Assembly (NCBI GenBank): GCA_022792135.1
Contig: JAAWAM010000032.1
Location: 5,460 to 69,459, forward strand
DNA length: 64,000 nt
DNA from: Clostridia bacterium
GTDB taxonomy: Bacteria > Bacillota > Clostridia > TANB77 > CAG-508
Direction: 5' to 3'
Numbering within the stretch: the stretch's first letter is position 1; each line of letters starts with the position of its first letter. Below the pieces are notes generated by a model, which made no database searches, was not told the DNA's origin, and worked only from the letters and a program-made list of their open reading frames with translations. Position numbers and translations under genes: made by a program. This document shows, one piece after another, positions 9,841-34,786 of this stretch.

Positions 9841-11628
9841 ATGTTTCAAATAGAAGAGGAATTAAAAAAATTACCCCATAAACCTGGTGTTTATGTTATG
9901 AGAGATAAAGAAGATACGATTATTTATGTAGGGAAAGCCGTTTCATTAAAAAATAGAGTAAGGCAATATTTTAGAAAAACAGATAAAACAGCAAGAATTG
10001 AGAAAATGGTAAGTTTAATTGACCATTTTGAATACATTGTAGTTGATAATGAAGCAGAAGCATTAATTTTGGAATGTAATTTAATCAAAAAAAATAGACC
10101 AAAATTTAATGTTTTATTAAAGGATGACAAAACATATCCATATATTAAAATAGATTTAAAATCTGATTATCCAGGAGTTTTTATAACAAGAAGGGTAATG
10201 AATGATGGTTCGAAATATTTTGGTCCATATGCCAATCCTGGAGCAGCTAAAGAGATGGTAGATTTTATTAAACAAAAATATAAAATACGTCAATGTAGAA
10301 TGCTAAAGGAAAGAAACAGACCATGCTTAAATTATCATATCAATCGATGTTTAGCTCCTTGTATGGGATATGTAACCAAACAAGAGTATAGAGAACAAAT
10401 CAATGAGATTATGGATTTATTAGAGGGAAAAATAGATAAGATTGTAAAAGAACTAGAAAAGCAAATGCAAGAAGAATCTCAAAAGATGGAATTTGAAAAA
10501 GCAGCTATGCTAAGAGACCGAATCCAAGCCATTACGAGGGTATCGGAAAAGCAAAAAGTATCCAATCTATCAGAAAATGATATTGATGTGATTGGAATTG
10601 CAAAATCAGAATTACAAGTTTGTATTGAGATTTTCTTTGTTCGTGGAAGTAAAATGATAGGAAGAGAACATTATTTTTATACAGACCTAAAAGATATGGA
10701 AAACAAAGAAATTTTATCAGGATTTATCAAACAATATTATTTAGATAATCCGAATATCCCAAATAAAATTATGATACGAGAACAAATAGAAGATAAAGAG
10801 GCTATTGAAGAATGGTTATCCACAAATTTAGGAAAGAAAGTGGAGATTAAAAGCCCAAAACGAGGGGAAAAGCTACGTTTTGTAGAAATGGCAGAAAAGA
10901 ATGCAAAGGTTACATTAGAAAATAAAGAAAAAGATAAAAGTGAAGTTTTACTAGAATTAAAAGCAGTATTAAAGTTAGACAAATTACCAAGAAAGATTGA
11001 AACTTATGATATTTCCAATTTAGCAGGAGAGTATACTGTTGCTGGAATGTGTGTGCTGCAAGATGGCGTGATTAAAAAAAATCTGTCAAGAAGATTTAAA
11101 ATAAAAACAGTTTATGGACAAGATGATCCAAAATGTATGGAAGAAGTGATTACAAGAAGATTAAAACATTCGATTGAAAATCCGAAAGGCGGATTTGGAA
11201 GCTTACCAGATGTTATTTTTGCCGATGGTGGAATTACACAAATAAGAGCGACTAAGAAAGCAATCAAAAAATATAATTTAGAGATTCCTGTATTTGGTAT
11301 GGTTAAAAATGATAAACATCAGACAAGAGCTTTGATGGATGAAGAAAGAAATGAACTACCAATTTCACAGAATTTAATGAATTTAATTACTAATTTCCAA
11401 GATACGGTTCATGATACAGCAATTACTTACCATAGAAAATTGCGTGCAAAAAGTATTACAAAGTCAGAGCTAGATGAGATTTCGGGAATTGGAGAAGTGA
11501 AGAAAAAGGCTTTATTGAAACAATTTGGTAGTGTGGAGAAAATAAAACAGGCTTCCATAGAAGCATTAATGGAAGTAAAAGGCATTACGAAAGAATTAGC
11601 ACAAAAAATAAAGAAGGAAATAAGCTAG
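9841..11628 (+). CDS. uvrC: Excinuclease ABC subunit C
   Basis: GIY-YIG N-terminus (PGVYVMRDKEDTIIYVGKA), UvrBC domain and C-terminal HhH. Confidence 0.95.
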   Translation: MFQIEEELKKLPHKPGVYVMRDKEDTIIYVGKAVSLKNRVRQYFRKTDKTARIEKMVSLIDHFEYIVVDNEAEALILECNLIKKNRPKFNVLLKDDKTYPYIKIDLKSDYPGVFITRRVMNDGSKYFGPYANPGAAKEMVDFIKQKYKIRQCRMLKERNRPCLNYHINRCLAPCMGYVTKQEYREQINEIMDLLEGKIDKIVKELEKQMQEESQKMEFEKAAMLRDRIQAITRVSEKQKVSNLSENDIDVIGIAKSELQVCIEIFFVRGSKMIGREHYFYTDLKDMENKEILSGFIKQYYLDNPNIPNKIMIREQIEDKEAIEEWLSTNLGKKVEIKSPKRGEKLRFVEMAEKNAKVTLENKEKDKSEVLLELKAVLKLDKLPRKIETYDISNLAGEYTVAGMCVLQDGVIKKNLSRRFKIKTVYGQDDPKCMEEVITRRLKHSIENPKGGFGSLPDVIFADGGITQIRATKKAIKKYNLEIPVFGMVKNDKHQTRALMDEERNELPISQNLMNLITNFQDTVHDTAITYHRKLRAKSITKSELDEISGIGEVKKKALLKQFGSVEKIKQASIEALMEVKGITKELAQKIKKEIS

Positions 11629-11654
11629 AGTGTCGGCTTCTAGCTTATTTTTTC
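11622..11654 (+). terminator. uvrC terminator, which is also the 3'-terminal hairpin of the convergent minus-strand hairpin unit
   Basis: aagctaga / tctagctt stem with 9-nt loop gtgtcggct, then attttttcc. Confidence 0.7.
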
Positions 11655-11977
11655 CGTACTCCTACGAACCCTGCGAACAGGGTTTGTAGGAGTATACATA
11701 GCCCAACGAGCTTTGGTGAACTCATTGGGCTGAAAAACCCAAATACAATTGTTAGGAGAAAGAATGCTCCTAACAATGCGAACGCATAAATAATAATATT
11801 TTTGCGTTCGCAAGCTTCTCCCATAGCAGAAGCTGCAATCAGAAAGGTTATAAGAATGGCAATTTCCAATTGAGATGGACTGCCTTCTTTAAAAAAGTTA
11901 TAGATACTTGTGTATTTACACAAGTATAAAAACAAACTTCCTAGACAAGTGTCTAGGAAGATGTCAAATGGATTCAT
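11645..11977 (-). CDS. Hypothetical 110-aa hydrophobic ORF whose sequence is built from stacked perfect palindromes; coding status uncertain
   Basis: AAGGAGG SD 9 nt upstream of the ATG at 11977 and an extended -10 promoter (TGATATAAT at 12026-12034, TTGATT at 12050-12055). The ORF overlaps at least 8 perfect hairpins and is more GC-rich than its flanks. Confidence 0.35.
   Translation of the reverse strand: MNPFDIFLDTCLGSLFLYLCKYTSIYNFFKEGSPSQLEIAILITFLIAASAMGEACERKNIIIYAFALLGAFFLLTIVFGFFSPMSSPKLVGLCILLQTLFAGFVGVRKK
11657..11960 (-). other. Array of consecutive perfect hairpins (candidate structured RNA)
   Basis: Stems at 11657-11694 (nested 9+7 bp, UUCG loop on the minus strand), 11700-11731, 11749-11776, 11777-11812, 11813-11834, 11904-11927 and 11937-11960. 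The one imperfect pair (11707/11724) is C.A on plus but G.U on minus. Confidence 0.7.
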
Positions 11978-12122
11978 ATATATATACCTCCTTAGGACTC
12001 TTGCCGACACAAGAATATCATTTATATTATATCACGAAAGCAAGTAAAAAATCAATAGATTTACATAAATTAGAAAATTTGGAATTTTAGGAATAATTTA
12101 AAAAGTTTTGCATATATATATC

Positions 12123-12157
12123 AATGGTCATGTTGTACCTGTCCCCAATTGACCATT
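12123..12157 (+). repeat. REP-like hairpin repeat, copy A
   Basis: aatggtcatgttgtacctgtccccaattgaccatt, with stem AATGGTCA/TGACCATT. Related to the copies at 42183 and 45873-45997. Confidence 0.7.
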
Positions 12158-12213
12158 GGTAAGTTTAGGACAGGCATAAAAGCATAAATGACTAGGATAA
12201 GGGGGAATTTTTT

Positions 12214-12423
12214 ATGGAATATGCAAAAGAGGAGTTATTTGAAGTTAGGTATAATACGAAGTTAAAAAAGTTAGTTATCAAAAAGCCAAGATGGAGAGGG
12301 AAAATAATGAGAGCAATGAAAGCTCATAAATTAATAACAACTGCTAGTATTGCTTTTATGATGTTTTCTATTCTAAATATGGTTATGATATATAGTTTTA
12401 TGAAAATTTTGCAAAACATATAA
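12214..12423 (+). CDS. Small hypothetical protein with one C-terminal TM helix
   Basis: 69-aa ORF with AAGGGGG SD. No recognisable family. Confidence 0.4.
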   Translation: MEYAKEELFEVRYNTKLKKLVIKKPRWRGKIMRAMKAHKLITTASIAFMMFSILNMVMIYSFMKILQNI

Positions 12424-16627: not shown

Positions 16628-16688
16628 AAAATCACAACTAAGAAGAAAAATAAAAACAAATCTTATTTTTCTTCTTAGTTGTGATTTT
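16628..16688. terminator. Very long (26-bp perfect stem) bidirectional terminator between rnr and the ger operon
   Basis: aaaatcacaactaagaagaaaaataa / ttatttttcttcttagttgtgatttt with a 9-nt loop. Confidence 0.75.
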
Positions 16689-34353: not shown

Positions 34354-34412
34354 AAATACCAGAAAAGAGTTAGTTAAATTAGGACTAATTCTTTTTTTGC
34401 TAAAAGGAAATA

Positions 34413-34675
34413 AATAAGCAGCGGCTGCTAACCACTGCTTATTCTGGTATCACGATGAGTGATACCAGTTCATGAAACTTATCGGAATGAACCGACAAAG
34501 TTTCATTTTCTAAATAGACTTGATCAAGTCTATTTAGAAAATTTTTATTTGTCCAGTAAAATTTTACTGGACAAATTCCTCTCTCCTTATTGTAAATAAG
34601 AAGAGAGATTTTTTCCCAAAAGCTGAAAAAGTCAGCTTTTGAGATAGTGCGAAATTCGCTGAAAGCGAATTTCGC
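34413..34675 (-). other. Array of eight consecutive perfect hairpins/palindromes (candidate structured RNA)
   Basis: Stems at 34413-34443, 34444-34468, 34472-34506, 34505-34542 (38-nt perfect palindrome), 34547-34576 (30-nt palindrome), 34579-34607, 34617-34641 and 34649-34675. The only mismatch (34585/34601) is C.A on plus but G.U on minus. Confidence 0.7.
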
Positions 34676-34693
34676 TAAAATAGTAATACTCAT
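34439..34693 (-). CDS. Hypothetical 84-aa ORF built from stacked perfect palindromes; coding status uncertain
   Basis: GAGGAGG SD 7 nt upstream of the ATG at 34693 and a promoter TTGTAA-17-TAAAAT (34743-34715, minus). The stop lies inside the terminal hairpin, and the amino-acid composition is unprotein-like. Confidence 0.3.
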   Translation of the reverse strand: MSITILAKFAFSEFRTISKADFFSFWEKISLLIYNKERGICPVKFYWTNKNFLNRLDQVYLENETLSVHSDKFHELVSLIVIPE

Positions 34694-34786
34694 AAAAAAT
34701 CCTCCTCACCAACCATTTTATCATAATTTAACATAATTTACAAGCAGCATTTTTAGAACTTACAAAACAAAAATTCGAAAAATGGA

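Follow-up and report, generated by a model that had tools for sequence, protein, structure and literature searches.

The 64,000-nucleotide stretch of Clostridia bacterium contig JAAWAM010000032.1 analysed here (hereafter, the window) carries a short gene, locus 1, on its minus strand and convergent with uvrC. We studied the interval 11600-12060 and read the transcription unit as 12055-11603. Locus 1 is a genuine, self-contained gene, comprising a promoter, a 5' hairpin, a Shine-Dalgarno (SD) sequence, a 110-codon open reading frame (ORF) for a membrane protein of three to four helices and a terminator shared with uvrC (Table 1). The extended -10 promoter and the AAGGAGG sequence opposing uvrC, both recognised in a first-pass annotation of the window, were confirmed, and the transcript predicted from promoter to terminator is approximately 400-410 nt long. 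The promoter core CTTTCGTGATATAATA was unchanged across 6 of 6 alleles. The loop of the hairpin in the 5' untranslated region (5'UTR), UGUCGG, was invariant and its stem covaried among alleles (UCUUG/CAAGA versus CUCCUU/AAGGAG), with three pairs altered on both sides; the initiation region (about -20 to +17) was without a local hairpin in every allele. At the opposite end of the unit, a GC-containing stem with a U-run on each strand is present, as expected of a bidirectional intrinsic terminator, and its loop bears CCGACA (11636-11631), the complement of the 5'UTR loop.

The coding sequence (CDS) between these ends is occupied by stacked hairpins. Perfect stems of at least 8 bp were found in H1, H2, H5, H6, H8 (nested and UUCG-capped) and the terminator, and shorter or imperfect stems in H3, H4, H7 and the 5'UTR hairpin. 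The unit has six perfect hairpins in 343 nt, where the rest of the window would predict 0.34 (Poisson P = 1.6e-6), and the 421-nt RNA 11600-12020(-) had a folding energy of -166.8 kcal/mol versus -93.2 +/- 6.4 kcal/mol in dinucleotide shuffles (z = -11.5), which bears out the stacking of perfect hairpins reported initially. The CDS alone gave a fold z of -13.7 and the five alleles spanned -13.7 to -19.1, compared to a mean of -0.76 and a minimum of -4.0 in 34 control pieces (330 nt) of neighbouring genes. The unit was also richer in GC than its surroundings, as had been noted (0.35-0.39 versus 0.27-0.33 nearby). The stem sequences were mutually different throughout, in agreement with the earlier view that they do not form a repeat family, and blastn of the unit against the window returned only its own palindromes and no second copy. 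The statement that the single imperfect pair is G.U held for its identity on the mRNA strand but not for its singularity, as an A.C mismatch also sits between the nested stems of H8.

Table 1. Positions of the features of locus 1 and locus 2 in the window
Feature	Coordinates	Strand	Description
Promoter, sigma-70-type with extended -10	12026-12055	-	TTGATT (12055-12050), 18-nt spacer, TG-n-TATAAT (12034-12026; here TG-a-TATAAT); 10/12 consensus matches
5'UTR hairpin	11998-12015	-	Begins ~4-5 nt past the inferred transcription start (~12019); loop UGUCGG (12009-12004)
SD sequence AAGGAGG	11987-11993	-	9 nt 5' of the ATG at 11977
ORF	11645-11977	-	110 codons, small polytopic membrane protein; ATG at 11977, TAA at 11645
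H1	11937-11960	-	10-11 bp, then UUUGUUUUUA; intrinsic-terminator-like
H2	11904-11927	-	10-11 bp; 2 pairs altered on both sides among alleles A-C
H3	11852-11889	-	Imperfect, nested; rebuilt differently in alleles B and D; 6 two-sided pair changes
H4	11813-11834	-	7-9 bp; 15 bp in allele D
H5	11777-11812	-	10-bp GC-rich stem with AU extension; one pair G.U in alleles B and B'
H6	11748-11777	-	11 bp; retained in allele D through two compensatory pairs
H7	11700-11731	-	11 bp, one U.G on the mRNA strand; 5 two-sided pair changes across alleles
H8	11657-11694	-	Nested 9 + 7 bp, UUCG cap, one A.C mismatch
Bidirectional intrinsic terminator	11618-11650	both	12-bp stem, T-runs either side; houses the TAA of the small ORF and the TAG of uvrC
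3' tail, then U-run	11603-11620	-	UUUCCUUCUU; complementary to the SD sequence; RNAalifold helix with it in all alleles
uvrC	9841-11628	+	Convergent with the small gene; final codons inside the cassette and allele-dependent (KKEIS, KEKIS, KEEIS)
Allelic cassette	11570-12100	both	Identity to a near-identical strain 68-90% inside, 99-100% outside
Locus 2	ORF 34439-34693, unit 34390-34760	-	Own promoter, GAGGAGG, 84 codons, 7-8 perfect stems of 10-18 bp

Coding evidence and the allelic cassette

The differences between alleles clearly point to purifying selection on the encoded protein. They were spread over codon positions 1, 2 and 3 as 21:8:34, omega for the small ORF was 0.22-0.33, and all length differences were multiples of 3 (indels of 3, 6 and 33 nt), the ORF ranging from 109 to 124 amino acids (aa) across all alleles. 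The observation that it stays open through all the palindromes was upheld; 109 codons of such composition would remain open by chance with a probability of 7e-4, and each of the remaining five frames is interrupted by 3-9 stops. A purely structured non-coding RNA, one of the identities first suggested for the locus, was rejected on the grounds of this protein-level selection. The product has helices at residues 3-22, 36-58, 61-81 and 88-109 and a basic C-terminus (RKK). Its initial description as 3-TM-like was correct for the three strongly hydrophobic segments, and the count was revised to three to four transmembrane (TM) segments owing to a weaker N-terminal helix. An AlphaFold2 (AF2) model contained four long helices, with low confidence (predicted local distance difference test, pLDDT, 61).

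A search of 5.8 billion clusters at 90% identity, combined with a complete HMMER scan of 1.84 billion representatives (from ~15 billion proteins), recovered five relatives (P0001-P0003, P0004 and P0006) in two 50%-identity clusters, and the family comprises two representatives in the 50%-identity library derived from those proteins. All five are located between uvrC and a conserved 69-aa gene (orf69). The locus is thus present beside uvrC in relatives, contrary to the possibility, raised at the outset, of its absence from all of them.

At least six discrete, syntenic alleles of locus 1 were distinguished, on contigs whose sources included ERZ14650995, SRR30781992 and SRR36216099. Contig L001, derived from another sample, was 99-100% identical to 10.1-15.9 kb of the window except within the cassette delimited in Table 1; relative to allele D, the divergent tract covered ~11540-12300. 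Between the window and L001, synonymous (dS) and non-synonymous (dN) divergence were 0.038 and 0.004 for uvrC versus 0.50 and 0.16 for the small ORF. The allele-D strain had an identical methyltransferase protein and flanks 97-100% identical to those of the window, around a cassette that was 38-73% identical. Overall, cassettes with 38-90% identity lay between flanks of 97-100%. Allele D' was a mosaic, in which an A-type promoter and 5'UTR were fused to a D-type CDS, and allele B resembled B', whose source lineage has a far more diverged uvrC. This pattern fits homologous exchange of old alleles between strains that are otherwise near-identical. Three samples shared an identical allele A, and at least eight sequencing runs an identical allele D; as identical alleles recur in independent samples, both ongoing hypermutation and an assembly artefact at locus 1 were rejected.

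Discrete alleles within identical flanks would also be produced by a mobile or invertible cassette, bounded by the perfect 8-bp inverted repeats GTGTCGGC and GCCGACAC that flank the SD sequence and ORF and moved or flipped by a site-specific recombinase. The same explanation could draw on a putative insertion sequence (IS) transposase fragment that abuts the unit in one strain. We regard it as very improbable, because divergence runs past both repeats into the promoter and uvrC, the orientation and site are the same in every recovered contig, a second copy is absent from the window, and no recombinase gene was called in the inspected syntenic neighbourhoods. The fragment was observed in the allele C strain (L004 67-330), where the 3' part of a gene (...PRHNGKVERSHRKDQERFYY...) takes the place of the region 5' of the cassette promoter; on our own reading of its motif, we take this gene to encode a transposase. 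An IS element therefore appears to have inserted right beside the unit.

Selection on the mRNA hairpins

In a protein-guided alignment, the hairpins of all alleles were found at matching codon positions. This included allele D, which has different stem sequences, a protein 43% identical to that of allele A and a stronger fold still (z = -18 to -19). In the case of allele C, H1 was swapped for another stem, CCGGCACUA/UAGUaGCCGG. Covariation was evaluated over 127 pairs in an alignment of five alleles (A5), with partners slid by 1-3 columns and 500 shuffles as controls. In A5, 90.7% of the cells paired versus 43-50% with slid partners, and 27 of the 127 pairs were altered on both sides, in comparison to 6-11 with slid partners and 11.5 +/- 2.3 after shuffling (0/500 shuffles reached 27). 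A further 12 double changes in local stems were identified between D and D' (P0004 and P0006), and five of these 12 remake one whole stem and alter the encoded residues (FDIALDIFSAVLL to FDIVLDIANTILL). Among alleles A-C, divergence was 0.10-0.12 at sites paired in both alleles versus 0.26-0.28 at unpaired sites (p <= 0.003), and third codon positions behaved likewise. Isolated stem mismatches, summed over the locus 1 alleles and two further genes described below (locus 2 and the L029 gene), were G.U on the sense strand in 16 cases and A.C, corresponding to G.U on the other strand, in 4 (one-sided binomial ~0.006, by our own arithmetic). This excess of G.U on the sense strand favours the mRNA over DNA cruciforms or a lagging-strand template.

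These alignments show that selection acts on the mRNA strand to fold into a chain of approximately ten local hairpins spanning nearly the whole CDS. They likewise show constraint on the RNA structure as well as on the protein; where the two conflict, the stems are preserved through paired substitutions that alter amino acids. The first-pass annotation had proposed a covariance analysis of homologous loci and had named, as the contrary outcome, a conserved protein whose synonymous changes destroy the stems. The stems turned out to be retained through compensatory changes, and the contrary outcome does not apply, as the homologues retain both the protein and the stems.

That locus 1 is an ordinary small membrane-protein gene with incidental hairpins is hardly credible in view of these data. 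Minus-strand genes of this kind are indeed the usual content of the same slot in related species, but the fold z of the CDS (-14 to -19, versus -0.8 in controls), the significant covariation and the lower substitution at paired sites all argue against it. We also consider an origin at the DNA level improbable. The palindromes would, in that case, have been made and homogenised by template-switch (quasipalindrome) mutagenesis, or they would act as cruciforms in a head-on convergent region, the RNA fold being a by-product. Template switching alters both arms together and would mimic compensatory evolution; both hairpin loci of the window lie on the minus strand, with every neighbouring gene on the opposite strand, and each stands out locally as an island of divergence (in locus 2, 10/255 nt versus 0/3532 nt in the flank). 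However, mismatches arising on a lagging-strand template would be A.C, whereas G.U on the mRNA strand prevails (16:4), and the recurrence of identical alleles in independent samples argues against ongoing hypermutation. Relative to the protein, the hairpins keep their positions, loops change faster than stems, and most of ~740 kb of related sequence is without hairpin clusters.

The uvrC-orf69 slot and further hairpin-rich genes

The nearest species-representative genomes were uncultured gut metagenome-assembled genomes (MAGs) labelled Clostridia or Clostridium sp. (CAG:343, CAG:440 and similar), with 75-87% identity over the UvrC C-terminus. Their backbone order was uvrC, a gap of 44-2100 bp (L010-L089), orf69 and the methyltransferase gene. 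The gap usually contained one or two minus-strand genes for small membrane proteins, each with a 5'UTR hairpin, a strong SD sequence and a terminator. In 20 of 80 species, the slot carried a 2-TM protein of 65-146 aa in which an N...(I/F)P...G pattern is conserved, again behind a 5'UTR hairpin and a strong SD sequence. No homology between this family and the locus 1 protein was detected (no match by hmmsearch; hhalign probability 3.6%). The CDSs of the slot genes were moderately over-structured (mean z = -3.05, extreme -7.7), and hairpin clusters were otherwise absent from the ~740 kb of related sequence. Locus 1 occupies a variable slot, bordered by uvrC and the conserved 69-aa gene, within a clade of low-GC, uncultured 'Clostridia' MAGs from the gut.

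Some of the gaps (L010-L089) also hold a second small ORF (MKKA(F/L)VVL...HFPGA...). The orf69 gene itself (12214-12423, +) encodes a 69-aa protein with a C-terminal membrane anchor and is kept beside the methyltransferase gene across the clade; its product had nothing above the cut-off in Pfam, NCBIfam or PHROGs. At 12119-12179, in the interval that separates orf69 from the cassette promoter, imperfect inverted repeats (CCTGTCC...GGACAGG; CAATGGTCA...TGACCATTG) overlap one another. Their arms are displaced in the allele-D strain, where a hairpin is still present, and they may represent a leader or terminator element.

A second gene of the same build, locus 2, was identified elsewhere in the window (Table 1), with a fold z of -15 to -16. 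Its 84-aa product is non-hydrophobic and unrelated to the locus 1 protein, every mismatch in its stems is G.U on the sense strand, and its terminator (AAATAAGC...GCTTATTT, then UUUCCUU) resembles that of locus 1. The presence of the same all-hairpin design on a non-hydrophobic ORF means that the design is therefore not tied to one protein, to hydrophobicity or to membrane toxicity. No relatives of locus 2 were found outside its own species, and an exact-protein look-up of its ORF returned nothing on record. In comparison to another strain, the 10 substitutions in its 255 nt (5 synonymous, 5 non-synonymous) contrast with 0 in 3532 nt of flank. Several assemblies (L090, L091, L093 and L096-L098) end inside or just upstream of locus 2 (window ~34400-34760), and in three strains its promoter region (~34700-34760) is replaced by a divergent block, which suggests structural variation or assembly trouble at these hairpins. 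A third hairpin stack was found directly past uvrC in Clostridium sp. CAG:343 (L029 4503-5024, minus strand), in an unrelated gene for a 173-aa membrane protein with a fold z of -12.3 for the unit and -9.4 for the CDS; the CDS of its homologue (L015 4505-5056) reached -6.1.

Given two unrelated cases within 64 kb, one more in a related species and the local islands of allelic divergence at loci 1 and 2, it is conceivable, though we hold it doubtful, that 'all-hairpin genes' form a distinct class in this lineage. Such genes would be short, independently transcribed and opposed to their neighbours, the whole CDS doubling as a conserved RNA hairpin chain (in locus 1 maybe closed by a loop kiss) whose shape would matter no less than the protein. 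Separately, a terminator-like hairpin of unusual length, with a perfect stem of 26 bp around a loop of 9 nt, was observed at 16628-16688, directly after the RNase R gene.

Possible function and comparison with known systems

The searches agreed with the earlier remark that no described family has this organisation. Rfam (release 15), which the first-pass annotation had recommended searching, gave no match at the gathering threshold anywhere in the 64 kb, whether to a riboswitch, a leader or a known small RNA, and locus 1 matched none of its families. In a permissive local search of Rfam, the best match by E-value was PGK RNA (31.9 bits versus a threshold of 50.8), and nothing was credible. Among Pfam, NCBIfam and PHROGs, the best match of the locus 1 product was YlaH (14.9 bits versus a cut-off of 27), and the 124-aa product of the P0004 allele and the 84-aa product of locus 2 had nothing above the cut-off. 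A metagenome scan with the conserved promoter and loop pattern returned one unrelated chance match (L099), and a scan of viral contigs with the conserved 3' hairpin pattern returned none. A full-text literature search for consecutive hairpins in bacterial coding regions retrieved no description of such genes. A LexA (Cheo) box in the CGAAC...GTTCG hairpin was also considered and rejected, as by eye its half-sites are 22 nt apart instead of 4. Locus 1 is therefore a real and unusual finding, i.e., an allelically diverse gene built almost wholly of hairpins, subject to protein and RNA constraint and without a described family in the libraries and literature searched.

The best overall explanation, to which we assign a probability of about 0.5, is a dual-constrained, hairpin-built gene whose transcript would be a nuclease-resistant, translation-restrained message. 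The proposed mechanism is more tentative. The 5'-terminal hairpin, the chain of 10-15-bp stems and the strong terminator would protect the RNA against Firmicutes-type decay, in which exonucleases act from the 5' and 3' ends and endonucleases cut single strands; stems of 10-15 bp are short for RNase III. Ribosomes would be forced to unwind ~100 bp of chain, and the outcome would be a long-lived message with slow or conditional translation. The output of a potentially harmful membrane protein might thereby be held down or timed, as in the logic of type I toxin mRNAs, and pairing of the UGUCGG and CCGACA loops and of the SD sequence with the 3' tail may close the transcript, masking the SD sequence until the 3' end is trimmed.

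Several observations weigh against this explanation. The initiation region is open and the SD sequence strong, which argues for efficient initiation, and locus 2, of the same design, encodes a non-hydrophobic product. The product of locus 1 (110-124 aa, 3-4 TM) is beyond the size range of type I toxins (20-60 aa), and no convincing conserved antisense promoter was noted when the alleles were inspected by eye; the plus-strand promoter-like sites near locus 1 are weak (9/12) and, by eye, unconserved or directed away from the mRNA. The evidence for closure is also divided. The octamer GUGUCGGC (reverse complement of 12003-12010) finds its exact complement at 11630-11637, within the loop of the terminator, both complementary octamers (GUGUCGGC and GCCGACAC) are present in the sequence, and UGUCGG and CCGACA, both in hairpin loops, are invariant in 6/6 alleles. 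The exact complementarity proposed at first is thus correct and conserved, but closure into a panhandle is not supported by covariation or duplex energy. Since both loops never vary, covariation is absent; the best 5'/3' duplex has no advantage in stability over duplexes with shuffled 3' segments (of which a fraction of 0.08-0.72 did as well or better), and the pyrimidine-rich 3' tail is the antisense of the Lys/Glu codons closing uvrC. The helix between the SD sequence and the tail is retained by RNAalifold in all alleles, with one-sided changes only (G-C/G-U). For these reasons, we hold transcript closure to be possible only.

Alternatively, the hairpin chain itself could be the active element of a dual-function RNA, another of the identities first suggested for the locus, or of a mainly regulatory one, with the protein as an additional or lesser product. 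It could act as a platform or sponge for a protein that binds double-stranded RNA or hairpins, or as a kissing-loop regulator, e.g., of the uvrC 3' end, since the terminator loop of the uvrC mRNA by construction complements that of this RNA and equals its 5' loop. The retention of stems at an amino-acid cost, the invariance of loops while stems vary and the recurrence of the architecture on the unrelated, non-hydrophobic ORF of locus 2 are in line with such a role. We nevertheless consider it unlikely, given the clear purifying selection on the protein, the absence of an identified target or partner and of an Rfam family, and the complete turnover of stems between alleles, which would require a partner to read shape and not sequence.

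Bacterial CDSs are usually thought to bear weak, local structure, while here the whole ORF is a near-perfect hairpin chain preserved through compensatory evolution, sometimes at the expense of the protein. If this design does set the life span or translation of the mRNA, it would represent a compact natural route to a nuclease-resistant message with gated output, relevant to mRNA design. The gene would also be a clean, naturally occurring case in which to examine how a single sequence reconciles the demands of its protein with those of its RNA structure, and it marks a polymorphic slot driven by recombination in a poorly known group of bacteria from human and animal guts.

Type I toxin-antitoxin systems are defined by a toxin mRNA of 150-400 nt, a toxic protein of 20-60 aa and an antisense RNA of 60-200 nt, and the key determinants of the toxin mRNA are 5' stem-loops, terminator stem-loops, SD/anti-SD pairing and 5'-3' long-distance interactions (T1TAdb, PMC8594479). 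The length predicted for the locus 1 transcript corresponds to that of these mRNAs. Like hok/Sok and Helicobacter aapA1/IsoA1, locus 1 combines a short monocistronic mRNA of ~400 nt, a strong promoter of its own, a 5' stem-loop, a terminator stem-loop, an SD-complementary 3' end and a hydrophobic product at a strain-variable chromosomal locus. Full-length aapA1 mRNA is not translated before processing of its 3' end. Locus 1 departs from these systems in the size of its product (110-124 aa, 3-4 helices), in its open initiation region and in a 5'/3' pairing that neither covariation nor energy supports; an antisense RNA gene was not found. Moreover, the hairpins fill the whole CDS, in contrast to toxin mRNAs, where they are confined to the leader and ends. 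Type I toxin membership, suggested in the first-pass annotation, was therefore rejected on the defining protein size.

Other known systems share single aspects of this organisation. In Firmicutes, 5'-terminal stabiliser hairpins, as in the ermC and aprE leaders, and strong 3' terminators both block exonucleases. Locus 1 similarly has a hairpin within a few nucleotides of the 5' end and a strong terminator, but these are end elements only and leave ten conserved hairpins inside the ORF unexplained. REP/BIME, BOX, Correia and MITE-like elements also present stacked stem-loops adjoining the 3' end of a gene; they are, however, multi-copy, non-coding and built on a shared consensus, whereas locus 1 is single-copy, coding and syntenic, with every stem different. 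In the single-stranded RNA phages MS2 and Qbeta, coding and dense hairpins are co-selected and compensatory evolution occurs within ORFs. Locus 1 differs from these in being a chromosomal bacterial DNA gene, without a replicase, coat-binding or packaging context. S. aureus RNAIII (hld) and B. subtilis SR1/SR1P are multi-stem-loop transcripts of a few hundred nucleotides that also encode a small protein, and the locus 1 transcript likewise joins many stem-loops to a small protein. In RNAIII and SR1, the ORF is a small part of the RNA and the regulatory loops are conserved in sequence, whereas the ORF of locus 1 covers nearly the whole RNA and its stem sequences turn over between alleles.

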